Shown here: piece by piece, positions 1 through 12,594 of the stretch
Layout: each line of letters begins with the position of its first letter
Numbering within the stretch: the stretch's first letter is position 1
Origin: Promethearchaeota archaeon
GTDB lineage: Archaea; Asgardarchaeota; Thorarchaeia; Thorarchaeales; Thorarchaeaceae
Reading direction: 5' to 3'
Assembly: GCA_027031765.1 (NCBI GenBank)
Contig: JALVPN010000117.1
Location: forward strand, 1 to 12,594
DNA: 12,594 nt
Notes under the pieces: model-generated
What the model saw: only the letters and a program-made list of their open reading frames with translations
Told to the model about the DNA's origin: nothing
Database searches by the model: none
Program-made: the position numbers and the translations under genes

Positions 1-2216
1 CGCTTGTATATGTACCGGGCCCATGAGGACATGCTCGGCATCTCCTCTGGCATGCCCTTGCGGCGCCGGATCTCAAGGATGACCTGCTCCTGTAGTGCAG
101 CAGGCAGGGGCTCGAAACCCCTGAACTCGTAACCGAAGAAACTCCGCCCGGCGCTTGCGCTCCTGAACTCGTCGGCTATGCCGATGGTCTCGGCTGTGGG
201 CAGGGTGCCCTTTATTGTGACCGAGTCCTCCTCGGCCTCCATTGCCACAATCTGTCCACGGTGCGCCGTCAACACCTTGATCACTGCGCCTTGGGTGTCA
301 GGTGGTGTCTTGATGTCGACGTTCAGGACGGGCTCGTAGAGGGCTGGCCCGCCTGTCAGGAACGACATGTTCAGGCCAGAGCTGACCATTGTGGCCACCT
401 CGTTGAACCCGGTATGGGCCGGGTCGGTGTGGACGGTGGCATCGGTCAGTACGACCTTCACTGCCATCACGGGCTCGTGTGCAATTGGTCCTGCATTGAC
501 GAACTCCCTGAACGTCGACTTCACATAGGCTGATATCCTGTCGAACCGCTGTACGCCGGTCATCGCGTCCACGAGGATGCAGTTCTCATATATGTCGAGG
601 ATCTTGCGGGCCTCTTTCGCGTCCCAACCAGCCTCGCGCCTGAGGATTTCCGCGCGCTCACGTGCAGGCTGGTCGATGGTGACCTTCTTCTTCCTGATGA
701 GCTCCACGGTCTTGTCGTCAAGGGGTTCAAGGTACATCTTTATCCTGTTGTGTCCGTTTGGCGACTTTGTGTGGAACTCTTGGCCGTGCTCCGTCATGCG
801 TTCGCGGTAGACGATGATTGGCTCAGAGACCTTGATTGGTACTTGCTCGTTGATGCGTTTCGTGAGTATCTCGATCTGGAGCGGGTCGATACCATCGAGG
901 CGGTACTCGCCAGACTCCTTGTCATGCACGAACCGGGCCGTCGGGTCTGCCATTATCCATTTGCGTACGACCTCGCCGAGCTTGCCGATGTCCTGTGGGT
1001 CCACAGGCTTGATGCTCCTGCTCACGACAGGCTCGCTGACGTACTCGATGGCCTCGAAACCCGGCATGTCTGATGACGGGTCAACAAAGGACTCGCCTGA
1101 CGGACACAGGAACCCGAAGATGGACATCAGGTTACCCGCGGGTATCTTGTCCATCGGGAGGATGTCTGTGATCTCCTGCACGCCGAGGCGTTTCACACGT
1201 GCGTTCTGTTTCATGTTGATAAGCCGGATCTCCTGACCGGACTCAAGCGTCCCTGAGAACACGCGCCCAATCAGAGTGGGCCGTTTGCTCTTCGGGTCAA
1301 CGTAGATCTTCGTGATCATGCCGAGGAGCGGGCCGTCCGGGTCGCACTTGAGGAGTGCACGTCCCTCCGGGCTGTCAAGGTCGCCCCTCCATATCCTCGG
1401 TATCTTGTACTTCTGTGCCTCCCGTGGGTTCGGCAGGTGGTGGACAATCATCTCAAGCAACGCGTCGTCCAGTGGCAGGTTCTCCCGCAGCCACTTCTCG
1501 TCGCCCTCTGCGTACTTCTCAAACACAACGATGGGCTTGATGCCTTTCTTCTCAAGGGTGCGCATTGTGAATGCCCAGCCGGTCTTTGCACTGCCAATGG
1601 CGACAGTGCCATGTTCAAACCCGACCTGCCACTTCTTCTTGAACTCTGGTGGTGCCACCTTGCGGATCAACTCGTTGACCTTGGCCACAATGAGGTCGAT
1701 GCGTTCGTACACCTTCTTGGGTGGCAACTTCAGTTCCTGTATCAGCCGGTCGACCTTGTTGACGAAGAGGATTGGTCTGCAGGCCTCCGCTCCCACTGCG
1801 AGCCGGATGTTGGTCTCGGTCTGGGTCATCACCCCCTCAAGGGCGTCCACCAGGATGACGACCCCGTCACTTGCTCTGAGTGCCCGTGAGACCTCACCTG
1901 TAAAGGAGAGGTGTCCGGGGGTGTCGTTCAGCTGGACCAGGTACTCCTCACCGTCGACCTCGAAGTTGAGCAGCACGACCGATGTGAAGATTGTAATCCC
2001 TCGTTCCTGCTCCTCCTCATCGCTGTCGGTCATCAGGGCCTGTCCGGCCGCCGCGTCGCTCATCAGCCCTGCCCTGCGCATGAGGTAGTCGGTCGTCGTC
2101 GTCTTGCCATGGTCGATATGCGCACTGATGGAAACAATTCTCTTGTGCTCATAGTCATCTGACAGTATGAGTCTCCTGATTGCGTCGGGGTCCTTGATCT
2201 TGACCACTTTTTTCAC
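1..2216 (-). CDS. fusA: Elongation factor 2 family GTPase, divergent paralog (aEF-2p-like); 3' end truncated by window edge
   Basis: Manual minus-strand translation from GTG at 2216 (in-frame TAG just upstream at 2220-2222); no stop seen down to position 1. It reads MKKVVKIKDPDAIRRLILSDDYEHKRIVSISAHIDHGKTT (G1), EQERGITI (G2), DTPGHLSF (G3), FVNKVD (G4), GSAKTGW (G5), domain IV loop HTDPAHTG and the C-terminal FRSASAGRSFF...RRRKGM. About 738 codons lie in the window. The ORF track omits it because the stop is outside. Confidence 0.95.
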   Translation of the reverse strand, partial: MKKVVKIKDPDAIRRLILSDDYEHKRIVSISAHIDHGKTTTTDYLMRRAGLMSDAAAGQALMTDSDEEEQERGITIFTSVVLLNFEVDGEEYLVQLNDTPGHLSFTGEVSRALRASDGVVILVDALEGVMTQTETNIRLAVGAEACRPILFVNKVDRLIQELKLPPKKVYERIDLIVAKVNELIRKVAPPEFKKKWQVGFEHGTVAIGSAKTGWAFTMRTLEKKGIKPIVVFEKYAEGDEKWLRENLPLDDALLEMIVHHLPNPREAQKYKIPRIWRGDLDSPEGRALLKCDPDGPLLGMITKIYVDPKSKRPTLIGRVFSGTLESGQEIRLINMKQNARVKRLGVQEITDILPMDKIPAGNLMSIFGFLCPSGESFVDPSSDMPGFEAIEYVSEPVVSRSIKPVDPQDIGKLGEVVRKWIMADPTARFVHDKESGEYRLDGIDPLQIEILTKRINEQVPIKVSEPIIVYRERMTEHGQEFHTKSPNGHNRIKMYLEPLDDKTVELIRKKKVTIDQPARERAEILRREAGWDAKEARKILDIYENCILVDAMTGVQRFDRISAYVKSTFREFVNAGPIAHEPVMAVKVVLTDATVHTDPAHTGFNEVATMVSSGLNMSFLTGGPALYEPVLNVDIKTPPDTQGAVIKVLTAHRGQIVAMEAEEDSVTIKGTLPTAETIGIADEFRSASAGRSFFGYEFRGFEPLPAALQEQVILEIRRRKGMPEEMPSMSSWARYIYK

Positions 2217-2275
2217 TCTCTAGTTTCCTGTCCCCAGTTGTGGCACTTGACACGAGAGAACTCGGTGGGGGGGTC

Positions 2276-2299
2276 GCCACCAGTCCTGTCGCCGGTGGC
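2276..2299 (-). other. Stem-loop at predicted 5' end of EF-2 paralog mRNA
   Basis: Minus strand GCCACCGG-CGACAGGA-CUGGUGGC forms an 8-bp stem (one G-U) with an 8-nt loop. Confidence 0.55.
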
Positions 2300-2321
2300 T
2301 TTGGCGACCACCATGACGATG

Positions 2322-2336
2322 TTTAAAAGAATTTCG
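2322..2336 (-). promoter_or_regulatory. BRE-TATA promoter of the EF-2 paralog
   Basis: The minus strand reads CGAAAT-TC-TTTTAAAC, a purine-rich BRE followed by an archaeal TATA box. Standard spacing puts the TSS near 2299, about 83 nt upstream of the GTG. Confidence 0.7.
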
Positions 2337-2461
2337 TAATGGGGCCTGGGTACTGCTGGGGTCTGCAGGTGCTCATGACGATTGCACTGGGCCGACCCGG
2401 AGTCGTGGACACTCTCTCAGCGGTACCGTGCCCTCCCCCAGCAGTGCCGTACTACCGTCGG

Positions 2462-3241
2462 CTACTTCTCGGCCACGACGACCATTCGTTGCGAGTCGGC
2501 TGAGTACGGTGTCCTCGGGAGCTTGTTCTGCCCGTAGAGCTCCACCTTGTTGAACCCTGTGTCTGCAAGGAGCTCGCGGATCTCGTGTGCTGTGTACATC
2601 CTGATGTTGTTGTTCATCATCGCGTCCTCGTTCATCACAACAATGCGTGCGTTCTCAACATCGATGAAGGTCGCAGGTCTGCCCCTGAGAATGCCGGACG
2701 CGGCATCCAGGACATGTGCCTCGTTCAGCAGGTAGCCCCCTGCAACCTTGGTCCAGGTCTTGTGGAACCGTGGTAGGTTGTACGGGTTCATCAGGTCGAG
2801 CAGCAGTCGTCCACCAGCTCTCAGTGCATTGTATGCGCCCCGGAGCACAGCCATGTTCCCCTCATGGTCAAAGAAACCGAAGCTGTGGCTCAGGATCACC
2901 GCTGCATGGAACCTCTCATGGTAGTCCATCTCCCGCATGTCCCCGGTGTAGAAGTCCACTTCCACTCCCTCTTCCTGTGCACGCTGCATCCCAGCCCTCA
3001 CCAAGCTCTCTGCAAGGTCGAATGCGGTGGCCTTCAGCCCCGCCTTTGCGAACTCTATGCTGTGCACACCGGCACCGCAGGCAATGTCGAGGACCTCTCG
3101 GCCCGGTTCGAGACCAAGTGTGTCGATACAGAACTCCACGACCATGCGGTCGTACTGTTCAATCCCGGGGATGGAGTTGCGGTGCTTTATCCTGAACAGC
3201 TCGGCCCAGAACTCGTCCCAGCCAAGGGCAACTCTCTGCAT
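2462..3241 (-). CDS. Class I SAM-dependent methyltransferase
   Basis: 259 aa. Motif I VLDIACGAGVHS, acidic end of strand 2 (AFDLA), GDMR, and post-II LRAGGRLLLD. The substrate cannot be inferred. Confidence 0.9.
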   Translation of the reverse strand: MQRVALGWDEFWAELFRIKHRNSIPGIEQYDRMVVEFCIDTLGLEPGREVLDIACGAGVHSIEFAKAGLKATAFDLAESLVRAGMQRAQEEGVEVDFYTGDMREMDYHERFHAAVILSHSFGFFDHEGNMAVLRGAYNALRAGGRLLLDLMNPYNLPRFHKTWTKVAGGYLLNEAHVLDAASGILRGRPATFIDVENARIVVMNEDAMMNNNIRMYTAHEIRELLADTGFNKVELYGQNKLPRTPYSADSQRMVVVAEK

Positions 3242-3389
3242 GGCACTGTCCTCTCGTGCGCAACGATATGAAGCTTGTCATTATGTGTCCCGCCACTCCC
3301 ACCCGGCAGGTGTACGACCTAATCCCCCACCAAGACGTACTCGCATGCTCACTGGGCCACGCAGCCGTACCGGAAACGCAGAACGGGGT

Positions 3390-3487
3390 GGAGACGCTCT
3401 GACACCCTGTTGTTGAGATCTCCGCCGGGAGGTTTGGACTTCAACAGGAAACTCAGAGTGATGAGCATGACCAGTGCGAGCGTCTCC
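3390..3487 (-). ncRNA. Candidate ~98-nt structured non-coding RNA (unassigned family)
   Basis: A perfect 10-bp terminal inverted repeat (3390-3399/3478-3487) encloses further stems (3406-3412/3442-3448; 3418-3423/3428-3433). A minus-strand TTTATA box at 3517-3512 begins 30 nt upstream of G3487. Confidence 0.45.
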
Positions 3488-3509
3488 GGACTAATCATGT
3501 TCGGCCACG

Positions 3510-3525
3510 CCTATAAATGTATAGG
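3510..3525. promoter_or_regulatory. TATA box embedded in palindrome CCTATA-aatg-TATAGG
   Basis: 6-bp inverted repeat with a 4-nt spacer. It contains TATAAA (+) / TTTATA (-) in an AT-rich patch of the MTase-aspS divergent intergenic region. Confidence 0.55.
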
Positions 3526-3710
3526 TCATATGGTAAACAGTGAAGTCTCATGAAAAATCGTTAGTCCCGGTGGTGGTCGTGGCCCGGTCACTGTCATGGC
3601 ACGGTATCCATGCTCCTCGATGCGCCACCGTTCTCGTCCTCTCCACGGTGTCTGGGCCACAAGTCTCATAACCATGATGCCAATCGGCTCGGCAAGTGAG
3701 GCAGCGCAAG

Positions 3711-5069
3711 ATGGACTTCTATGAGAGGGCTGGTGTTGAGCCCATCGATGACGCACCGAGGACACACTACACCTCAGAGATTGTCCCAGCACTCACCGGC
3801 GCCGAGGTCGAGTTGATGGGCTGGGTGCACATACTCCGTGACAAGGGCCGCATCAAGTTCCTGGTCCTCAGGGACGAGCGGGGCACAGTGCAGGTCACCA
3901 TCCCGAAGAAGCGCGTCCCGGAGGAAGTGTTCGAGGTCTCCGGCACACTGCGTCCCGAGACCGTGGTCGCAGTCCATGGCACGGTCGTTGAGGCGCCCCA
4001 GGTCGAGCGTGGTGTCGAGGTGATACCGTCACGGCTACGGGTCCTGAACCGGTCGGAACCACTGCCCATCGATGTGGTGGAGGGCAAGGCCGGCATCGAC
4101 CTTGACACACGTCTCAACCACCGTATCCTCGACCTCAGGAAGCCGCGGGTGAACGCAGTCTTCAGGGTACAGCACTGTCTCGTCCGGTTCGCCCGCGAGT
4201 ACCTTGAGGAGAATGGTTTCGTCGAGGTCCACACACCCAAGATTGTTGCCGAGGCCACGGAGGGTGGCGCGAACCTCTTTGAGATAAAGTACTTTGAGCG
4301 CAAGGCGTTCCTGGCACAGAGCCCGCAGTTCTACAAGCAGCTCATGCTGCTCGCTGGCTTTGGACGTGTCTTTGAGGTGGCGCCGGTCTTCAGGGCCGAG
4401 AAACACAACACACGCCGTCATATCAATGAGTATACCTCCTTCGACCTGGAGATGGCATGGATACGTGGTGTGGAGGACGTGATGGCCATCGAGGAGGAGA
4501 TGCTGTGCCATGCGTTCTCCAAGACCCGTGAACATGCTGCTGCTGAGCTGGAGCTCCTCGGCGTGGAGCTTGTGACCCCCAGAATACCCTTCCCACGGGT
4601 CAAGTACGCAGGGGTCATTGACATGCTCGCCTCCGAGGGCAAGGAGCTTGAGCTGACCGACGACCTCGACCCTGAGGCTGAACGCATGCTGGCAGAACTG
4701 TTCCCGGAGCGCTTTGGCACCGATATGGTCTTCATAACCCACTACCCACTTGAGCTGCGTCCTGCCTACACGATGCCCAGCATGACCGACGAGGGCATGA
4801 CCGAGAGCTTCGACCTCACTTACAAGGGCATGGAGATCACCACTGGCGGACAGAGGATTCACCTGTACGACCTGCTCGTTGAACGGTTCCGTGCGAAGGG
4901 CTTCAACCCCGATGACTTTGCGTTCTACCTCGACCCGTTCAGGTACGGTGCTCCCCCACACGGTGGTCTGGGCCTTGGTGTCGAGAGGCTGACAATGCAG
5001 GTGCTTGGCATAGAGAACATCCGCGAGGCCACACTCCTGCCACGTGACCGCGACCGGCTGACGCCGTAG
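3711..5069 (+). CDS. aspS: Aspartyl-tRNA synthetase, archaeal type
   Basis: OB-fold N-terminus (RTHY...GWVHILRDKGRIKF), motif 1 (FVEVHTPKI), AQSPQFYKQ, motif 2 FRAEKHNTRRHINE, GGQRIH, motif 3 PPHGGLGLGVER and the C-terminal PRDRDRLTP. ATG 3711 is preferred over GTG 3696 because GTGAGG upstream looks like an RBS. Confidence 0.96.
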   Translation: MDFYERAGVEPIDDAPRTHYTSEIVPALTGAEVELMGWVHILRDKGRIKFLVLRDERGTVQVTIPKKRVPEEVFEVSGTLRPETVVAVHGTVVEAPQVERGVEVIPSRLRVLNRSEPLPIDVVEGKAGIDLDTRLNHRILDLRKPRVNAVFRVQHCLVRFAREYLEENGFVEVHTPKIVAEATEGGANLFEIKYFERKAFLAQSPQFYKQLMLLAGFGRVFEVAPVFRAEKHNTRRHINEYTSFDLEMAWIRGVEDVMAIEEEMLCHAFSKTREHAAAELELLGVELVTPRIPFPRVKYAGVIDMLASEGKELELTDDLDPEAERMLAELFPERFGTDMVFITHYPLELRPAYTMPSMTDEGMTESFDLTYKGMEITTGGQRIHLYDLLVERFRAKGFNPDDFAFYLDPFRYGAPPHGGLGLGVERLTMQVLGIENIREATLLPRDRDRLTP

Positions 5070-5094
5070 TCCGACACCTGTCCACGCCGCACCA

Positions 5095-5113
5095 GTAATA
5101 CTCTGTCTTAAAG
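5095..5113 (+). promoter_or_regulatory. Putative promoter of Vps22/36 gene (GTAATAC motif + TTAAAG TATA)
   Basis: AT-rich patch gtaatactctgtcttaaag in the short gap after aspS. Confidence 0.45.
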
Positions 5114-5176
5114 CACGTTGCTGGGTCACACTCCATGTCAAGAGTTGGTACTACTGGTACGAAGGGAGCCCGACCG

Positions 5177-5914
5177 ATGCGCGAGAGAGCCGAGTCTGAG
5201 CTGTACGCATGTATCGCGACACTCGACCAGCTGAAGAAGATGTACGACATGGGTGCAGTAGATATCACATCCTTCCGTCAGGAGTCGGCCGGCCTGATAT
5301 CTGAGGTCCGGGGCCAGATTGAGGAGATGCGCCGCCTCGGCCTGGACCCTGATGGCTTCCTAATTGCGCAGCGCATCCCTGAACGGTTCCCTGATGCTGC
5401 CTCACTCCTCGAACTCGGCAGCCCGGCCACCCAGCCGCTCGCAGGGCTCACACGGGAACAGTACCTCGACTACATCGGCCTCGCCGTACTAGACGTGGTG
5501 ACCGCGAATTCGTCCAAGGGCATCATGGGCCTCGCAGAACTCATAGTCGAGGTGGTACGCAGAATCCCGCAGTCATCCCCAGTGAGCTACAGCGACGTGA
5601 TTGAGGCCGTGGACATGGTGGCTGCACACGGCCTGATCCCTGGTATCCGGACTCTGAAGGGTGGTGTCAAGGTTGTCGAGCTCCGCCCCCTCGAACTGCG
5701 TGGTGACCAAGCTGAAGTGATAAACCTCGCAGCGTCAAAGGGGTACGTGACCATCGAAGAGGTGATGATGGAGTTGCGCTGGAGCCGCGACCATGCGGTC
5801 CAGGTCCTGGGGAGTCTGGTGGACGATGGGATGGCGGTGCTCGACAGCTCGTACTCGGCAGGGAAGCGCTACTGGTTCCCCGGCCTCCGGACACGTGACA
5901 GCAACGCCTCCTGA
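5177..5914 (+). CDS. ESCRT-II Vps22/Vps36 (EAP30) winged-helix protein with N-terminal Vps28-N-like hairpin
   Basis: The C-terminal ~150 aa match the Vps22/Snf8 tandem WH pattern (YLDYIGLAVLDV...GIMGLAEL...VSYSDVIEAV...PLELRGDQAEVINLAASKGYVTIEEVMMELRWSRDHAVQVLGSLVDDGMAVLD...YWFPGL). The N-terminal ~80 aa resemble Vps28-N. Start is ATG 5177 (GAAGGGAG RBS) or ATG 5135. Confidence 0.88.
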   Translation: MRERAESELYACIATLDQLKKMYDMGAVDITSFRQESAGLISEVRGQIEEMRRLGLDPDGFLIAQRIPERFPDAASLLELGSPATQPLAGLTREQYLDYIGLAVLDVVTANSSKGIMGLAELIVEVVRRIPQSSPVSYSDVIEAVDMVAAHGLIPGIRTLKGGVKVVELRPLELRGDQAEVINLAASKGYVTIEEVMMELRWSRDHAVQVLGSLVDDGMAVLDSSYSAGKRYWFPGLRTRDSNAS

Positions 5915-6098
5915 AGAGAAGAGGGCGGGACTTGGCGCCCGTAGAAACAGTGGTGGTACCCTCTCCCTGTGGTGGGGGTAAGACACGGTATGCCCTACAT
6001 CAACTAACACGGTGATGCGGACTCGTTACCTATGTCCTGTGCGTACCGTTGCCTACTCTGCCCCCTCTCGTGACGTCTCCCCTCCCCCGGGCCTCTCC

Positions 6099-6812
6099 TC
6101 AGACCCTGAGCAGCACCGTCCCCCTGTCCTCGTCAATCCACTGTGCCACCCCGCGTTCCACAAGACGGCCGAGTGCTGTCCGCAGCTCGTCCTCTGGGAG
6201 CGTCGAGAAGGCCTCGGTCGTTTCCCGGATCACAAGCGACCTGACATCAAGTCGTCTGTGACCCGTCCTCAGTGCCCAGTCGTATATGACATCTGACCAC
6301 TCGTCCGGGTCCCTCCAGAAGACCCGGAGGACACGTCCCTCCTCCCCCCTCCACTCTGCAAGCCCACGTTCTACGAGCCTGTCACCAATCGTCTGGAACG
6401 CGTCCATGCGCTGTTGTATCTGAGTGAAGGGCGAGTATGTCAGGAACGTCATGAGGGAGACCGTGTGCAGTCTGGCATGTGCAGTCCATTCGAGGAGGTA
6501 CTCCGCCCACTCGTCAGCCCACAACCGGCGGTCCTGTTCGTCCTGCGGCACAATGTACATCCAGCCTGCCTGTTCACGTGCCCCCCACTTTGGCTGGGGT
6601 GCAGTCGGTGGTGCCAGCGTCCCCTCGGCCGGGGTCAGTCCCACTGCCGACACCATGCCCCCGCCCTGACGCACCTGTCCGTCCACCACCCCTGATATTT
6701 GGCCCTCAGTGCTGGTCGCAGCTGTGGTGCTGTCCACGGCCGGCGGGGTGTCGTGAGAGACCTGTGGTGGTGCGCCCCTACCCTTCCTGCGGACGCGTTC
6801 CGCCATGCCCAC
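6099..6812 (-). CDS. vps25: ESCRT-II Vps25 homolog with ~75-aa low-complexity N-terminal extension
   Basis: Contains WADEWAEYLLEW, LAEWRG, VFWRDPDEWSDVIYDWALRTG (Vps25 signature I/V-W-R-x-P-E-E-W...IYxW) and FSTLPEDELRTAL. It starts 3 nt after the vps4 stop (GTG 6812 or ATG 6806), so the two form an operon. Confidence 0.88.
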   Translation of the reverse strand: MGMAERVRRKGRGAPPQVSHDTPPAVDSTTAATSTEGQISGVVDGQVRQGGGMVSAVGLTPAEGTLAPPTAPQPKWGAREQAGWMYIVPQDEQDRRLWADEWAEYLLEWTAHARLHTVSLMTFLTYSPFTQIQQRMDAFQTIGDRLVERGLAEWRGEEGRVLRVFWRDPDEWSDVIYDWALRTGHRRLDVRSLVIRETTEAFSTLPEDELRTALGRLVERGVAQWIDEDRGTVLLRV

Positions 6813-6815
6813 GGC

Positions 6816-8045
6816 CTATGACCCCTCCGCCCACTCTATGTAGCGCTGCATAACCCGCGGGTCGGTGGACGGGGACACCATGGTCAGTGCCCGCAGGAAG
6901 TCTCCCATTGTGACAGGCCTAAGTCCCGGTGCACCCCCTTCACTGGACCCCTTGTCACGGAGCACTTCTCTCACGGCCTCCATTGCAGCCTCCCGACACA
7001 CGGTGCTTATGTCCCGGCCACTATACCCCTCGGTCATGCCTGCAAGGTACTCGTAGTCCACATCTGGGGCGACATCGACGCCGGTCATGTGCACCCTGAA
7101 TATCTCGGCGCGTGCCCCTTTATCTGGCAGCGGCACGTGGATCCGCTTTTCAAAACGTGAGCACAGGGCGAAGTCAAGTTCCCAGGGCAGGTTGGTGGCG
7201 GCGATGACCGTGACCCTGTCGTCCTCACCCTCACGGAGTCCCTGCATCTCTGTGAGCAGCTGTGTTTTCAGGCGCCGCTCCCCGCCCACATCGTCTGCCG
7301 AACGCGCCGTGCCAAGGGCGTCGAGCTCGTCAATGAATATGACCGAGGGCTGCAACTCCCTGGCCCTCCGGAACAGCTCGTGGACAAGCCTCTCAGACTC
7401 GCCCAGCCACTTGCTCACGATATTGGCTGCTGACACGTTGAAGAACGTGGCACTCACCTCCGCGGCCACCGCGCGTGCAACAAGGGTCTTTCCACAGCCC
7501 GCGGGACCGTACAGTAGGACTCCCCTCCAGGGCCTCCGTGCCCTTGCTGCAAACAGCTCGGGCCGGGTCATCGGCGCAATGACGGCCTCCTCGATTGTCT
7601 GCTTCACATCGTCCAGGCCGACCACGTCACTCATCCGCGTGTCTGGTCGCTCGACGACAATCGTTGCGTCAACCATCTGTCGGACACGCTGCACGTCCTG
7701 GTCGCTCTCCGTCGGATAGGCCTCTGTCTGCTCGTCGCTGTCCGCAGGGGTCACCGTGTGGGGGCCGTGGGCGTCGTGTGTTGGCGGGTGCCGGGTGTGG
7801 GCCGTGGTGGGCCCGCCGGGACCGCACAGCTCTCTCACACGGTCAACACATTCCTGTGCACGGAGCATGTAGTGTCTTCTGAGCGACGGCAGTGTGGCCG
7901 AGCGTGACAGGTGCAAGAGGACCCTGCTCGCCTCGAGATATCGTCGTGCTGCCTCACGGCTCTGTCCGCTCCTGTCGAGGCCTACTGCTGTTTCCAGCAG
8001 ACGCCTGAGCCCCATGTCAACCCTGTCCATATGTGCTCCGGACAT
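6816..8045 (-). CDS. vps4: Vps4-like MIT-AAA+ ATPase
   Basis: N-terminal MIT three-helix pattern (AVGLDRSGQSREAARRYLEASRVL...YMLRAQE), Walker A GPAGCGKT, pore loop SKWLGES, Walker B IFIDELD, sensor 1 AATNLPW, GYSGRDI, and the C-terminal helix PSTDPRVMQRYIEW. There is no beta-domain insert. It neighbours ESCRT-II and ESCRT-III genes. Alternative start ATG 8030. Confidence 0.93.
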   Translation of the reverse strand: MSGAHMDRVDMGLRRLLETAVGLDRSGQSREAARRYLEASRVLLHLSRSATLPSLRRHYMLRAQECVDRVRELCGPGGPTTAHTRHPPTHDAHGPHTVTPADSDEQTEAYPTESDQDVQRVRQMVDATIVVERPDTRMSDVVGLDDVKQTIEEAVIAPMTRPELFAARARRPWRGVLLYGPAGCGKTLVARAVAAEVSATFFNVSAANIVSKWLGESERLVHELFRRARELQPSVIFIDELDALGTARSADDVGGERRLKTQLLTEMQGLREGEDDRVTVIAATNLPWELDFALCSRFEKRIHVPLPDKGARAEIFRVHMTGVDVAPDVDYEYLAGMTEGYSGRDISTVCREAAMEAVREVLRDKGSSEGGAPGLRPVTMGDFLRALTMVSPSTDPRVMQRYIEWAEGS

Positions 8046-8295
8046 GCTCCGTCGGCCCCATCTCTGCCACTTGAATATGAATATGGGACTATGCTCTTGG
8101 TATTACGTCTGTCCGCCCGTATGCCTGACATCGGTGGTCCTTCCTGCGCCCGTCGGCACACCGGGCCCGCCCACAGGTCGCGGCTGCCCGTCAGTTGGTA
8201 TACCCACCGCCTGTGTTCCTCTACAGGTATTACTACGTTTTTAGACTGATTACCGGTGCACAGGAATGGAGCTCGCTCCATATGTGGTGGACCAC
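8046..8295. promoter_or_regulatory. Divergent promoter region between vps4 and ESCRT-III
   Basis: AT-rich patches: tandem GAATAT x2 (8073-8084), TTTTTAGA (8238-8245), GGTATTAC at 8099-8106 and 8226-8233, and palindrome GGTATACC at 8197-8204. Confidence 0.55.
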
Positions 8296-8904
8296 ATGGG
8301 CGCCGCTAAGAAAGCATGGTCATGGGCGTGGAACAATGTGGATGTTAGCAGACTGCGTGTCGACCTGAAGGTGCTAGTACGGCAGCTCGAACGTGAACGT
8401 GTAAGGCTGGAACGTGAGGAGCGGGCGGCCCGTGAGAGAGCTGCCAGGGCCCATGAGAGTGGGAAATCCGATGTGTTCCGCTTCTACGCGACGGAAGCCG
8501 TCCGGTTCAGGCGCCTCGCCATTTCTGTGGACCGCTCGCGCCTGCAAATGCTCAAGGTCCTCGCTCTGGTGTCCCGTACACAGACGACGGCTAGGACATC
8601 AGTCGCAATGCAGGAGGTCGCCAGGACACTTGAGGTCCTTGAGAAGGAGGTCGACAGCAAGAGGACACTGCAGAACGCTGACGAGATTGCCCGCAGGCTT
8701 GAGGGGCTTGAGATTACAAGCGAGCTCTCGGCTTCTGCCCTCGACTCGGGCGTCGCGGAGGTCTCACCAGAGGAAGTTGCAGCCATGATGCGTGAGATTG
8801 CCAGCGAGCAGACGCATGACACACCAGCGAGGGGGGGCTTGCTGACAGAGGCCGAGGCACTTGAGGCCGACATACGCTCGCTGGAGCGTCAACTCGGTCT
8901 TTGA
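8296..8904 (+). CDS. ESCRT-III subunit, Vps2/24/46 (CHMP1/2/3-like) class
   Basis: Charged helical hairpin LKVLVRQLERERVRLEREERAARERAARAHESGKSDVFRFYATEAVRFRR...TQTTARTSVAMQEVARTL matches the CHMP1/Did2 pattern. It has an acidic C-terminal half, helix 5 SPEEVAAMMREIASE, and a Leu-rich MIM1-like tail. ATG 8296 follows GTGGTGG; alternative start ATG 8266. Confidence 0.9.
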   Translation: MGAAKKAWSWAWNNVDVSRLRVDLKVLVRQLERERVRLEREERAARERAARAHESGKSDVFRFYATEAVRFRRLAISVDRSRLQMLKVLALVSRTQTTARTSVAMQEVARTLEVLEKEVDSKRTLQNADEIARRLEGLEITSELSASALDSGVAEVSPEEVAAMMREIASEQTHDTPARGGLLTEAEALEADIRSLERQLGL

Positions 8905-9067
8905 GACTGGTGCACGGCCGTCCTCAGCTATGCGTGACACGGCAGACGGGGGCAATTGCGGTACAGTAGTCAATGACGGCTGCTGGTCAGGTCAGTAACG
9001 GCTGCTACTGTTCATCCGCTCCGGACCGCGCTTGGCGGACAGGTCGCAGCAGGGCCATTTCCCGGCC

Positions 9068-10789
9068 CTACCAGACCGGATAGCCCTGGCCTGCGGTCAG
9101 CCTCTCAATCTCTATGCTGGTCATATACGCGTCGCGCACGAGTTCTCTATACCTGCGTATGAAGTCCTCTGGGGCCAACCGCCCATCGCGCATCATCCTT
9201 ACTGTGCGTCTTATCTCTTCGTCAATGACTGCCGCCTGCTGTTTCAGGCGTTGGAGCCCCGCCACTTGTTGCGGTTGATATGAGTCACTGTACGTACTGC
9301 TACTCGTCGGGGGCCGTCCGAGTCCCGGATGGCCCGTTGTGGGCGTGCCTGCGGATGGCGGCCGCTGGACGTTGGGTGCAGTCTGATGGGGCTGGCCTGT
9401 CTGGACTGGGGATGGTGCTGGTATGTCCGTTGTGCTGTGTGGTATGGCCCAGTAGCTGCTGGTGCCATGGTCATGTTGGGGTGTTACAGCATGGCTGTAC
9501 CACTGGGGCGCAGCCCGTGCGGTCGGGGCCGGGTACCACCCCGTCGCTGCTGGCCCCCTCATGGACTGGGATGGCCGCACTGTAGCACTTGTGTCATGTC
9601 CTTGCGTCCTCGACGAGAGTACCATGTGGATGAGCGACTCGATCTTGAGGCGCACATCACTTACACTGGTGTCTGTCTGTTGCAGTCGCCTGACACGCTG
9701 CATGTCCGTCTGCATGTGCCTGTTGAATGTCCGGGCAACCTCCACGTACTGTGGCAGTACACTCTTTGTCTGCGGGTTGCACGAGAACCGCAGGTCTCCC
9801 TGGCGCATCTTGAAGACCAGTCTGTCCTGTCGCTTCGTGTCCGGCTCGATGTTCGAGAGATACGAGAGTGGAAAGTCGAAGACCACGTCTGTCCTTTTCC
9901 GCATGCGTCCTGTCTCTGCAATGAACACCATGCGCACGTCCGTGATGAAGAGGGTCCCTCTGGCCTTGTCGTTCTTCAGGAAGTCGCTCCCGGCCAGTGC
10001 GATGTCCGGAAATGCACACACGGGGTGCTCATTGACCCTGAACTCGGTGTAGTCCCTGAAGGGCCTGAACTGTTTCCTGTAGAACGCCACTCCGTCGAGC
10101 TGCGCCTTGAGGTCTGCGACAGTGAGCATGAGGCCTTGGAGGGCCTCGTCAACGCGCTCCCTGTAGTCGTTGCTCAGCTGTACCAGTCTATGCACCACGC
10201 CCCTAACGAACGAGAACTGCTCCGGTGCCCATCTAGTATAGTCAATCAGCCCGCGTGTTTCGGCCACCATCTGGCGCGCCACAATCTCGGCCTGGTTCGC
10301 AATCCTGCGCTTGACTGCTGGCAGCTCCGCATGGAGTCCCTCGACCTTGGCCTCGAGCCAGTTGTAGTGTAGGAAGTCCGCCATCCTGAGTGAAACGAGC
10401 AGCTGTTTTGCCTCCTCAAGGCGGTTGCGGAACTCCCTGAGTCGCATGTGACCATACCTTATGCCCATCACGGCGCGTTTCATCTCGGCAGCCAAGTTGC
10501 GCCGCGTCACATCAATGAGCACTGTCCTTACAGAGTGGCACTTGGGGCACCTGTCTGTAGTGCGCCGTCCGCGGGCCAGGTCTTTGGAGCCGCAATTGGT
10601 ACACTGGGTGGTGCTCTCTCCCGGCAGGGGGGTGCCCAGGTCTGTGTGACACTCCCTGCACACCCAGTACTCCCTTGTGACCGCTTCAAGGCATTCCGGA
10701 CATAGGACGGCCCCGCAGTCTTCACACAGGTGTGTGGCCCTTCGCGTACCGCAGACCTCACATGTGACTGCAGATGCATCTCCTCTCAA
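9068..10789 (-). CDS. Multidomain protein: Cys-rich Zn fingers + coiled coil + GRAM/PH-like domain + Pro/Ser/Thr-rich linker + C-terminal steadiness-box-like hairpin (putative ESCRT-I-like adaptor)
   Basis: Six CxxC pairs (10538-10762), a heptad-rich helical region (~10070-10507), ARGTLFITDVRMVFIA...FDFPLSYLSNIE (GRAM/PH-like, ~9722-10042), a low-complexity linker (~9266-9607), and MMRDGRLAPEDFIRRYRELVRDAY (~9095-9265). TTG 10789 is preferred as start because GGAGG lies 7 nt upstream; the ORF is open to 10969 (ATG 10924). Confidence 0.8.
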   Translation of the reverse strand: MRGDASAVTCEVCGTRRATHLCEDCGAVLCPECLEAVTREYWVCRECHTDLGTPLPGESTTQCTNCGSKDLARGRRTTDRCPKCHSVRTVLIDVTRRNLAAEMKRAVMGIRYGHMRLREFRNRLEEAKQLLVSLRMADFLHYNWLEAKVEGLHAELPAVKRRIANQAEIVARQMVAETRGLIDYTRWAPEQFSFVRGVVHRLVQLSNDYRERVDEALQGLMLTVADLKAQLDGVAFYRKQFRPFRDYTEFRVNEHPVCAFPDIALAGSDFLKNDKARGTLFITDVRMVFIAETGRMRKRTDVVFDFPLSYLSNIEPDTKRQDRLVFKMRQGDLRFSCNPQTKSVLPQYVEVARTFNRHMQTDMQRVRRLQQTDTSVSDVRLKIESLIHMVLSSRTQGHDTSATVRPSQSMRGPAATGWYPAPTARAAPQWYSHAVTPQHDHGTSSYWAIPHSTTDIPAPSPVQTGQPHQTAPNVQRPPSAGTPTTGHPGLGRPPTSSSTYSDSYQPQQVAGLQRLKQQAAVIDEEIRRTVRMMRDGRLAPEDFIRRYRELVRDAYMTSIEIERLTAGQGYPVW

Positions 10790-11088
10790 CTGGGGGCCTC
10801 CGGATGTCCTGCCTCCCTGTCTGTGACGGCAGTCAAGAATAACCCGTGTATTATTGCTGGAATACCGACCGGGCAGAGCCCCCTGTCTAGGCGTGCCTGC
10901 ACCGGGCGGCTGGGCCCCGGACATGGTTCGGCGGGGACGTCTACTGAGGGCCCAGGCCTTGGCGCCCACTTTTCACAACCACGGTCCTGCCGCCCGCTGT
11001 TGGTACTGTCCCCGGTATTATCTTGGAGGTGTGTTTGGCCACATAGATACATCTATGAACCCGTTGCTGCACGGCCAGTGTGATTGAT
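10790..11088. promoter_or_regulatory. Divergent promoter region between the Zn-finger/PH protein and tldD
   Basis: AT-rich patches at ~10835-10856 and ~11015-11060, each beginning with or containing GTATTAT. Confidence 0.4.
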
Positions 11089-12474
11089 ATGGAGGACTTG
11101 GCGGACGCCGCAATTCAGGCGGCACTGGATGCGGGAGCCACCTTCGCCGATGTCAGAATTGAAGACACGATGACCACAGTCCTTGAGATCAGCGACGGTG
11201 TGACACGGCGCTCCACAATATCCCATCTCAAGGGTGCGGGCATCCGCGCGCTTGTAGACGGTGCGTGGGGGTTCATCCAGAACACGGACCTGAGCCCCGA
11301 GGGGATGCGCGAGGCCGGGAGGTCTGTAGCAAAGATGGCCCTGGCCACCAGCTCGCGGGTGGAGGCGCGGTTTGACATCGATGCGCCCGTCTTCACTGGC
11401 AAGGTGACGATGCGTGTCAGGCGGCCCTTCGTGGATGTGCCCATTGAGGAGAAGGTCGAGTTTACAAAGATGATTGACGACCAGGCGCGCCAGTTCGACG
11501 AGCGCATTGTCAATACCCGTACGGTATATGGCGAGATGTGGACACGGCTGTTCGTCGCAAACTCGCTCGGTACACGTGTCTGGATGGAGAACTCACTCCC
11601 GAGGATCATGTCAATTGTCACCGCAAAGGACGGTGGCACCCGTCAGCGTGCCTTCCGTTCTGTGGGCACCCGCGGTGGGTTCGAGACCATGAGGACCGAG
11701 GAGGCCCAGCACATAGGTGAGGCCTCGGCACGCCTTGCAGTCGACCTCCTGTCGTCGGTGGCTGCAAAGGGTGGCATATACGACGTTGTCATGGACCCGG
11801 TACTCAACGGCGTGATGGTCCACGAGGCCTTCGGTCATGCCACCGAGGCTGACAACTGGCCCGCCCATGCCACTGTGCTCGAGGACAAGGTGGGCGAACA
11901 GGTGGGCCCCGAACACCTCAACATAAGCGACGACCCCACTCTGCCGGGCGAACGCGGCTCCTTCGAGTATGACTGGGAGGGCACAAAGACCCGGAAGCGC
12001 CGGCTCGTGACAGCAGGTGTCCTGACGGAACTCCTCCACAGCCTTGAGACCGCCTCGAGGCTCGGCATGGAGCCCAACGGTGCTGCCCGGGCGCAGAGCT
12101 TCATGTACCCGCCCATCCCACGGATGAGTAACACGTTCATGGAACCGGGTGACTGGAAGGTGGAGGAGATAGTCGAGGACACAAAGCACGGCATCATGCT
12201 GTGCAGTTTCAACTATGGCTACACTGAGCCGGCCAAAGGGCAGTTCATGTTCCAGGCACGTTATGGCTACCTCATTGAGGACGGCGAGGTCGGCCAGATG
12301 GTGCGCGACGTGTCACTGGCAGGTCAGATACTGGATGTCCTGTCAAAGATTGACGCTGTTGCGGACGACTTCCAGATGGAGGCCGGCACATGTGGGAAGA
12401 ATGGCCAGGGCGTCCCGGACATGAGTGGTGGCCCCCACGCACGGATCAGGGCAGTCCCTGTAGGAGGTATGTAG
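11089..12474 (+). CDS. tldD: TldD family metalloprotease
   Basis: GATFADVRIE N-terminus, zinc motif HEAFGHATEAD (HExxxH), GSFEYDWEG, PRMSNTFM, and the C-terminal CGKNGQ...SGGPH. Start is ATG 11089 (or GTG 11080). Confidence 0.94.
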   Translation: MEDLADAAIQAALDAGATFADVRIEDTMTTVLEISDGVTRRSTISHLKGAGIRALVDGAWGFIQNTDLSPEGMREAGRSVAKMALATSSRVEARFDIDAPVFTGKVTMRVRRPFVDVPIEEKVEFTKMIDDQARQFDERIVNTRTVYGEMWTRLFVANSLGTRVWMENSLPRIMSIVTAKDGGTRQRAFRSVGTRGGFETMRTEEAQHIGEASARLAVDLLSSVAAKGGIYDVVMDPVLNGVMVHEAFGHATEADNWPAHATVLEDKVGEQVGPEHLNISDDPTLPGERGSFEYDWEGTKTRKRRLVTAGVLTELLHSLETASRLGMEPNGAARAQSFMYPPIPRMSNTFMEPGDWKVEEIVEDTKHGIMLCSFNYGYTEPAKGQFMFQARYGYLIEDGEVGQMVRDVSLAGQILDVLSKIDAVADDFQMEAGTCGKNGQGVPDMSGGPHARIRAVPVGGM

Positions 12475-12477
12475 GCA

Positions 12478-12594
12478 ATGAGCAGTCAACTACTTGAGAC
12501 CGGCGAGCAGGCGGTCGAGGCCGCGCTGCGCCTCGGTGCTGACCAGGCCGAGGCATACGTGTCGCGGACGCGTTCGTTCGCAATAGATGTGGAG
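12478..12594 (+). CDS. pmbA: PmbA/TldE family protein, 5' fragment (runs off right edge)
   Basis: ATG 3 nt after the tldD stop, with AGGAGGT RBS at 12462-12468. It reads MSSQLLETGEQAVEAALRLGADQAEAYVSRTRSFAIDVE, which carries the GADQAEAY N-terminal PmbA/TldD pattern. tldD-tldE pairing is typical. Confidence 0.82.
   Translation, partial: MSSQLLETGEQAVEAALRLGADQAEAYVSRTRSFAIDVE

Follow-up and report, generated by a model that had tools for sequence, protein, structure and literature searches.

The endosomal sorting complexes that are required for transport (ESCRT) of yeast and human cells include an ESCRT-I whose headpiece is composed of three homologous helical hairpins, provided by the steadiness box (SB) of Vps23, the N-terminal domain of Vps28 (Vps28-N), and Vps37, and which is bridged to ESCRT-II non-covalently by the C-terminal domain of Vps28 (Vps28-C) and Vps36. 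In solved structures of the yeast ESCRT-I core (e.g., 2F66 and 2P22), the partner of Vps28-N is the Vps23 SB. This article describes an archaeal ESCRT locus in which, judged by homology, Vps28-N is fused to the ESCRT-II subunit Vps22 and is predicted to pack against the SB-like hairpin of a large zinc-ribbon protein, Znr_CC_PH_SB, that is encoded in the same gene cluster. The window analyzed is a stretch of 12,594 nucleotides (positions 1 to 12,594 of the forward strand of contig JALVPN010000117.1, GenBank assembly GCA_027031765.1) with a GC content of ~60%, from a Promethearchaeota archaeon of the Thorarchaeaceae (Asgardarchaeota; Thorarchaeia; Thorarchaeales) whose draft genome comprises 2.95 Mb in 229 contigs and is 95% complete. 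Open reading frames (ORFs) in the window were called in six frames, and gene identities were taken from a Pfam scan of these ORFs.

The closest described system is that of ThorAB25, for which the genes of a protein labeled "SB" (ThorAB25_08990), ESCRT3A (09000), Vps4 (09010), Vps25 (09020), and Vps22 (09030) have been reported, together with an ESCRT3B gene (07240) elsewhere in that genome (Hatano et al., 2022, Supplementary Data 1; PMC9192718). According to the passages of that paper considered here, the ThorAB25 set, which is without a separate Vps28, was tested pairwise by yeast two-hybrid; Thor Vps22 self-interacts, Vps25 binds ESCRT-IIIB, and contacts of Thor ESCRT-I/II with ESCRT-III that bypass Vps25 are suggested (Hatano et al., 2022). 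The same passages state that Thorarchaeota seem to be without ubiquitin, none having been found in 30 Thorarchaeota genomes, and that a free-standing SB protein of Loki- and Thorarchaeota "may interact with Vps28"; the proteins are labeled there simply as "SB" and "Vps22," and a Vps28 N-domain on Vps22 is not described. The name Znr_CC_PH_SB (asCOG cog.011556) was given by Makarova et al. (2024; PMC10936438), by whom the protein is considered a likely ESCRT-I component with a PH domain expected to bind membranes, and an Asgard Vps22 fused to a steadiness box (cog.002769) is also recorded. An explicit statement that the two hairpins pair is absent from the passages of both papers considered here. 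The architecture of the cluster, the lack of ubiquitin in Thorarchaeota, and a likely part for the large protein in ESCRT-I have thus already been published, and the possible novelty that the original prediction had raised for this architecture falls away. What is added here is incremental: the Vps22 N-terminus is firmly identified as Vps28-N, its fusion and the loss of Vps28 are found restricted to a single order, and binding of the hairpins is predicted with controls.

The window's genome resembles that of ThorAB25 in its five clustered genes and their families, in the encoding of ESCRT-IIIB elsewhere, and in that no ubiquitin was found; it differs in belonging to another, high-GC (~60%) genus and in its large protein, which shares only ~45% identity with relatives and has a longer, disordered linker. 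The locus is a conserved, standard five-gene ESCRT locus of Thorarchaeia. The original prediction had placed five ESCRT genes in alternating orientation between aspS and tldD, with no gene for ubiquitin, E1/E2/E3, a ubiquitin E2 variant (UEV) domain, or a Snf7-class protein among them, and the gene calls and class assignments agree with it in each of these respects. The gene order runs through a convergent pair, the co-directional Vps4 and Vps25, a divergent pair, and a second convergent pair, and the outermost two genes have their start codons precisely at positions 5177 and 10789. The ESCRT genes and the domains recognized in two of their products are listed below, with lengths in amino acids (aa) and models from AlphaFold2 (AF2), for which the predicted local distance difference test (pLDDT) is given.

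5177..5914 (+), Vps28N-Vps22 fusion gene (P0126, 245 aa); Pfam EAP30, 52 bits
5177..5422 (+), within P0126, domain assigned to the Vps28 N-terminal (headpiece) domain, residues 1-82, hairpin H2-24/H30-53; BLASTP, hidden Markov model (HMM), and weak PDB profile match
5453..5875 (+), within P0126, Vps22 core of one helix and two winged-helix domains, residues 93-233; AF2 secondary structure
6099..6812 (-), Vps25; Pfam ESCRT-II (PF05871), 47.4 bits, cut-off 27
6816..8045 (-), Vps4 AAA+ ATPase with MIT-like N-terminal domain; Pfam AAA, 137.6 bits, and AAA_lid_3, 55 bits
8266..8904 (+), ESCRT-IIIA (Vps2/24/46, i.e., CHMP1/2/3, class); Pfam Snf7, 47 bits
9068..10789 (-), large protein Znr_CC_PH_SB (P0006, 573 aa); homology and AF2 model
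10517..10789 (-), within P0006, Zn-ribbon module, residues 1-91, six CxxC pairs; sequence, weak Pfam DZR and zf-B_box matches, pLDDT ~90-95
10067..10516 (-), within P0006, three long helices (coiled-coil/helical bundle), residues 92-241; AF2 H92-136, H143-177, H189-241
9731..10024 (-), within P0006, PH domain of GRAM type, residues 256-353; AF2 beta-sandwich plus helix, Foldseek
9281..9583 (-), within P0006, disordered linker rich in P/S/T/Q, residues 403-503; pLDDT <50, an insertion in the alignment relative to homologues
9095..9277 (-), within P0006, steadiness-box-like C-terminal helical hairpin, residues 505-565; AF2 H505-534/H540-565, pLDDT 94-98

The first of these genes encodes a protein whose homologues, sharing 56-70% identity, are labeled Candidatus Thorarchaeota. 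Its EAP30 winged-helix core scores well above the Pfam cut-off (26.8 bits), a profile search of PDB sequences matches SNF8 to positions 90-240 (E = 8e-20), and the top structure retrieved by Foldseek with the AF2 model (pLDDT 80.8) is human Vps22 (2zme_A, E = 6.8e-9), ahead of Vps36. In the model, an N-terminal hairpin is followed by short helices, a flexible link, a further helix, and two winged-helix domains. The original prediction had called this hairpin Vps28-N-like, and its homology to the Vps28 N-domain is, at the level of sequence, firm. Residues 1-82 align by BLASTP over 74-77 residues with the N-domains of two Asgard Vps28 proteins at 35% and 41% identity (E = 9e-14 and 2e-13), both reference proteins coming from other Asgard families and each passing the Pfam VPS28 cut-off; when an HMM of Asgard Vps28 is run against the window's genome, the sole matching ORF is the Vps22 gene (E = 1.4e-9, HMM positions 23-99). 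In a profile search of PDB sequences, the match to the yeast Vps28 N-domain is weak (E ~0.1). Beyond the window's family, the fusion is independently indicated in G108, the one genome sampled from the sister family within that order, where the N-terminal part of the Vps22 ORF (G108:C64:32148-32864) matches Pfam VPS28 above its cut-off (24.6 bits, positions 2-142). No match to the ESCRT-II-binding, C-terminal four-helix bundle of Vps28 was obtained in the window's genome with either Pfam VPS28 or the Asgard Vps28 HMM. Because a Vps22 core follows the N-domain and no Vps28-C is matched in the genome, the gene is read as a Vps28N-Vps22 fusion and not as Vps28.

The pairing of this hairpin with the SB-like hairpin of the large protein, as originally predicted, is supported in silico by complex prediction. 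With residues 1-82 of Vps22 and residues 498-573 of the large protein, each chain being modeled with its own alignment, the interaction prediction score from aligned errors (ipSAE) came to 0.84, and the highest-scoring of three controls gave 0.02; among reference pairs, 58 of 80 solved complexes attained that mark, as did 2 of 110 mismatched pairs. Agreement between runs was at least 97% of contacts, with a partner pLDDT of at least 78. Helix 1 of the Vps28N hairpin (residues 11, 14, 15, and 18) is predicted to lie against helix 2 of the SB hairpin (residues 544, 547, 548, and 551), and in an entropy test the predicted interface residues proved more conserved than the rest of their own hairpins (p = 0.001 for SB, p = 0.05 for Vps28N). 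The yeast ESCRT-I core structures 2F66 and 2P22 were matched in PDB profile searches of both hairpin proteins. The models thus support binding between the two hairpins.

More than 130 homologues of the large protein were found (E down to 1e-169, 44-50% identity), nearly all of the named ones from Candidatus Thorarchaeota, and its family is that of ThorAB25_08990 "SB" and of asCOG cog.011556; the start of one homologue in the alignment (P0076) is almost identical to that of ThorAB25_08990. Its AF2 model, built from a 60-row alignment (mean pLDDT 81.4), displays the domain order described for Asgard Znr_CC_PH_SB, namely Zn ribbons (about three), coiled coil, PH domain, and C-terminal SB hairpin. 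By Foldseek, the PH domain matches the PH-GRAM domain of MTMR2, with a root-mean-square deviation (rmsd) of 3.4-3.5 Å over ~114 columns, and also the PH-like domain of Lam6. Matches of the whole model to DH-PH RhoGEF structures were rejected as homology, being mere helices beside a PH domain with an rmsd of ~20 Å. The C-terminal hairpin matches the yeast Vps23 SB weakly (E = 0.03-0.07, profile search of PDB sequences) and is the only match of Pfam Vps23_core in the genome (E = 0.0985). The linker that precedes the hairpin exceeds that of relatives of ~525 aa by ~50 residues and has a higher P/S/T/Q content, and no exact P(S/T)AP motif occurs in it. The large protein is likely an ESCRT-I-like membrane adaptor.

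The distribution of these features was surveyed in one sample of 151 Asgard genomes, of which 26 belong to the window's own family and one to the sister family, with the following counts.

Pfam VPS28: 103 of 151 Asgard genomes; own family 0 of 26
Pfam ubiquitin: 107 of 151 Asgard genomes; own family 0 of 26, sister family 0 of 1
Znr_CC_PH_SB profile: 99 of 151 Asgard genomes; own family 26 of 26
Thor Vps22 profile, alignments that begin at position 1 and so take in the hairpin: these two families only; own family 26 of 26, sister family 1 of 1

The large protein, being present in 99 of the 151 genomes, is therefore widespread in Asgard archaea, and several of the families that carry it also have Vps28 and ubiquitin. 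In the remaining families, most alignments to the Thor Vps22 profile begin at position ~65-112, at the winged-helix core, and a few at 19-55. An SB-fused Vps22 is on record (Makarova et al., 2024); in this survey, the window's order was the only one in which the Thor profile picked up the Vps28N-type hairpin. That order is marked by three features together: Vps28N fused to Vps22, free Vps28 not found, and ubiquitin not found. Since the genomes of the two families are close kin, this constitutes one lineage-level pattern and not many independent observations. Searches of the window's genome with the Pfam models ubiquitin, UEV, UQ_con, and VPS28 returned nothing, which extends to the whole draft assembly what had been said of the cluster with respect to ubiquitin and UEV.

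In relation to ESCRT-I of yeast and human cells, the Vps23-like SB and Vps28-N hairpins are both represented here, with predicted packing, and Vps22 and Vps25 are available downstream; unlike in eukaryotes, no UEV, ubiquitin, or Vps28-C bundle was found, nor could a Vps36, Vps37, or Mvb12 be identified. A UEV domain of the kind that binds ubiquitin or P(S/T)AP motifs was sought with Pfam UEV and UQ_con, without a match in the genome. Vps28-N is covalently fused to Vps22, the GRAM-type PH and Zn modules reside on the Vps23-like subunit instead of on Vps36, and a third hairpin, if there is any, would be provided by a separate small protein. A different fusion is found in Heimdallarchaeota, where HeimAB125_14070 is a one-chain UEV-Vps23-Vps28 protein that shares the Vps28-N motif "LFASIATLD" with the window's protein (Hatano et al., 2022). 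That protein joins Vps23 to the whole of Vps28 and retains UEV and Vps28-C, whereas here Vps28-N alone is joined to ESCRT-II.

The remaining genes of the window, which flank the cluster, are as follows.

3-2216 (-), EF-2; Pfam
2462-3241 (-), SAM methyltransferase; Pfam
3696..5069 (+), aspS, aspartyl-tRNA synthetase, conserved left flank; Pfam tRNA-synt_2, E = 4.8e-88; same neighbor in contigs L003-L006
11080..12474 (+), tldD metallopeptidase, conserved right flank; Pfam PmbA_TldD_3rd, E = 1.2e-63; adjoins the large gene in L003-L006

The genes for EAP30, Vps25, Vps4, a Snf7-family protein, and the large protein occur together in all four related contigs compared (L003-L006, long contigs chosen for carrying homologues of the large protein), with aspS on one flank and tldD/pmbA/argS on the other. 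Contig L006 is rearranged, yet its large gene still adjoins the ESCRT-III gene. The separation of the large gene from ESCRT genes, which the original prediction had named as a sign against itself, is therefore not what is seen; the gene is syntenic with them in four of four contigs.

Within the cluster, the start codon of Vps25 abuts the stop codon of Vps4 (6816-6818), so that the two probably form a Vps4-Vps25 operon. Vps25 is present as a single copy in the genome (Pfam ESCRT-II search) and carries an N-terminal low-complexity tail of ~90 residues (6540-6812, -), the tail of ThorAB25 Vps25 being similarly long; a PTAP motif in this tail is without an obvious reader, as no UEV is detectable in the genome. 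A 94-aa ORF at 6012-6296 (+), which runs antisense across the 3' end of Vps25 and has no family match, was treated as spurious. Vps4 has 409 aa, as does that of ThorAB25, and beyond its AAA domains its MIT (23.7 bits) and Vps4_C (18 bits) matches, although under their cut-offs, are rightly placed, in keeping with membership of the Vps4 family. The best PDB matches of the in-cluster ESCRT-III are to CHMP1B (E = 1.6e-7), followed by CHMP1A and CHMP2A, with SNF7 reached only at E = 0.58; it is thus of the CHMP1/2/3 class, and the earlier claim that the cluster holds no Snf7-class gene is correct.

Two further genes related to ESCRT function lie elsewhere in the genome.

G000:C211:18625-19113 = L012:7503-8165 (-), Snf7/Vps20-class ESCRT-IIIB; SNF7, E = 1.1e-11, and Heimdall ESCRT-IIIB, E = 5.9e-8
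G000:C143:2712-3059 = L018:2712-3059 (-), free-standing SB-like hairpin protein, 115 aa; SB-hairpin HMM, E = 1.6e-6

The ESCRT-IIIB gene, which is the Snf7/Vps20-class gene recovered by the genome search, has housekeeping neighbors (a HAD hydrolase, an inositol monophosphatase, and a ParA/NUBPL ATPase). Upstream of it stands a 204-aa ORF that is hydrophobic and membrane-protein-like and has no Pfam match; with such neighbors, a second ESCRT cluster at this site was rejected. The C-terminal half of the 115-aa protein is homologous to the SB hairpin of the large protein, and in one relative the protein cross-matches the large-protein C-terminus. It also passes Pfam GvpG narrowly (30.8 bits, cut-off 30.6), and it is kept in 31 of 31 genomes of the family at 50-62% identity, among neighbors in the window's genome that are unrelated (ZnuA, an ABC ATPase, NikR, and an HdrA-like oxidoreductase). 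It is a candidate for the third hairpin of the headpiece or for a competitor for the same surface. A second EAP30-like match (C40:168508-168846; L017:5467-7587, -) falls in a 706-aa ORF and represents the C-terminal winged helix of MCM, not an ESCRT protein; this false, sub-threshold match recurs in ORFs of ~800 aa in relatives and is a trap for domain-based surveys of ESCRT-II.

The original prediction had envisaged a self-contained cluster that hard-wires ESCRT-I to ESCRT-II without ubiquitin. The hairpin pairing stands as an in silico result and no ubiquitin was found; the description as self-contained does not hold, the genes for ESCRT-IIIB and for a second SB protein being located elsewhere in the genome. 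From these elements, a five-step scheme of assembly may be drawn, to which, taken as a whole, we assign a probability of roughly 60%. Znr_CC_PH_SB would be recruited to membrane or cargo by its GRAM-type PH domain and Zn ribbons, and its Vps23-like SB hairpin is then predicted to pack on the Vps28-N hairpin fused to Vps22; with no free Vps28 found, the fusion would replace the non-covalent Vps28-C/Vps36 bridge of eukaryotes. The winged-helix core of Vps22, probably as a homodimer, would bind Vps25, as homology and the published yeast two-hybrid results on Asgard proteins suggest. Vps25 would in turn nucleate ESCRT-IIIB, a step suggested by homology and by two-hybrid results on orthologues, with the in-cluster ESCRT-IIIA co-polymerizing, and the polymer would be disassembled by Vps4. 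The conserved free-standing SB-like protein may add a third hairpin to the headpiece. Since neither the genome nor the sampled genomes of the family yielded ubiquitin, E2, or UEV, recruitment is presumably ubiquitin-independent. A bolder form of the scheme, which we put forward only tentatively and hold to be possible, is that the thorarchaeial order has a merged, ubiquitin-independent ESCRT-I/II supercomplex in which Vps28 is cut down to a headpiece hairpin on Vps22, the PH and Zn modules have their place on the Vps23-like subunit, and the SB/GvpG-like protein completes a three-hairpin headpiece.

Several considerations weigh against this five-step scheme. The complex score may partly be the model's memory, because the yeast Vps23-Vps28-Vps37 headpiece has been solved; helical hairpins dock easily and are prone to false positives; and two chains were modeled, as against the three hairpins of the eukaryotic headpiece. 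None of the SB hairpin's sequence matches to Vps23 reaches significance (E = 0.03-0.1), ubiquitin and Vps28 are judged absent on the basis of Pfam and HMM searches of draft genomes, and Vps28 is reported to be fused to Vps5-BAR in some Thorarchaeia (Eme et al., 2023). The Vps22 hairpin might instead, or also, mediate self-association of Vps22, and competition for the same surface could come from the free-standing SB protein. The chief alternative, which we regard as rather unlikely, builds on these last points: the Vps28N hairpin would drive homodimerization of Vps22, as do the N-terminal helices of eukaryotic Vps22/Vps36, while the SB hairpin would pair with the free SB protein or with itself, and the large protein would contact ESCRT-II or ESCRT-III through some other surface, if it did so at all. 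Such an arrangement would accommodate the ease with which hairpins dock in silico, the homologous SB protein in all 31 family genomes, and, from the published passages, both the self-interaction of Thor Vps22 and the suggested contacts of Thor ESCRT-I/II with ESCRT-III that bypass Vps25 (Hatano et al., 2022). It sits poorly with the heterodimer score of 0.84 against a best control of 0.02, with the interface residues being the most conserved, and with the homology of the hairpin to Vps28-N, whose known partner is the Vps23 SB.

The persistence of some ubiquitin-like input, through a divergent SAMP/Urm1-like modifier or an unrecognized UEV or Vps28 elsewhere in the genome, is improbable. The draft state of the genome (229 contigs, 95% complete), the restriction of the Pfam models searched to ubiquitin, UEV, UQ_con, and VPS28, and the Vps28-BAR fusions reported for some Thorarchaeia (Eme et al., 2023) all leave room for it; yet ubiquitin and VPS28 are each matched in 0 of 26 genomes of the family as against 107 and 103 of the 151 Asgard genomes, and the passages of an independent study likewise report no ubiquitin in 30 Thorarchaeota genomes (Hatano et al., 2022). 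A Vps5-BAR/Vps28 fusion was sought in the window's genome and rejected, Pfam Vps5 giving nothing at E <= 1 and the Asgard Vps28 HMM finding no C-domain. Very improbable is the view that the large Zn-ribbon/PH protein is a mere conserved neighbor whose hairpin is a generic coiled coil, GvpG- or CdvA-related, with some other role. It could draw on the sub-threshold Vps23 matches, on the scoring of the paralogous free hairpin protein as Pfam GvpG, and on the inclusion of housekeeping aspS, tldD/pmbA, and argS in the conserved block. Against it stand the presence of the large protein in 99 of 151 Asgard and 26 of 26 own-family genomes, the position of its gene beside ESCRT genes even in the rearranged L006, the adjacency of the Lokiarchaeum large-protein gene to a Vps20 gene, the outcome of the complex prediction relative to its controls, and the classing of the protein as ESCRT-I-like in the passages of both published studies considered here (Hatano et al., 2022; Makarova et al., 2024).

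With this locus, one more and rather divergent instance joins the thorarchaeial ESCRT cluster already published, and the finding changes little in that respect. Its value is that of a clean test case, since Thorarchaeia possess ESCRT-I-like, ESCRT-II, and ESCRT-III components and Vps4, whereas ubiquitin, UEV, and free Vps28 are not detectable in them. Should the pairing of the two hairpins be real, an expressible system of two to three proteins would be at hand for the study of how an ESCRT-I/II bridge is assembled and recruited to membranes without ubiquitin, and the fusion would lend independent support to the link between Vps28 and ESCRT-II in eukaryotes. If the merged supercomplex also proves true, it would represent a natural, minimal wiring of ESCRT-I to ESCRT-II and could show how ESCRT is recruited in a ubiquitin-free setting.

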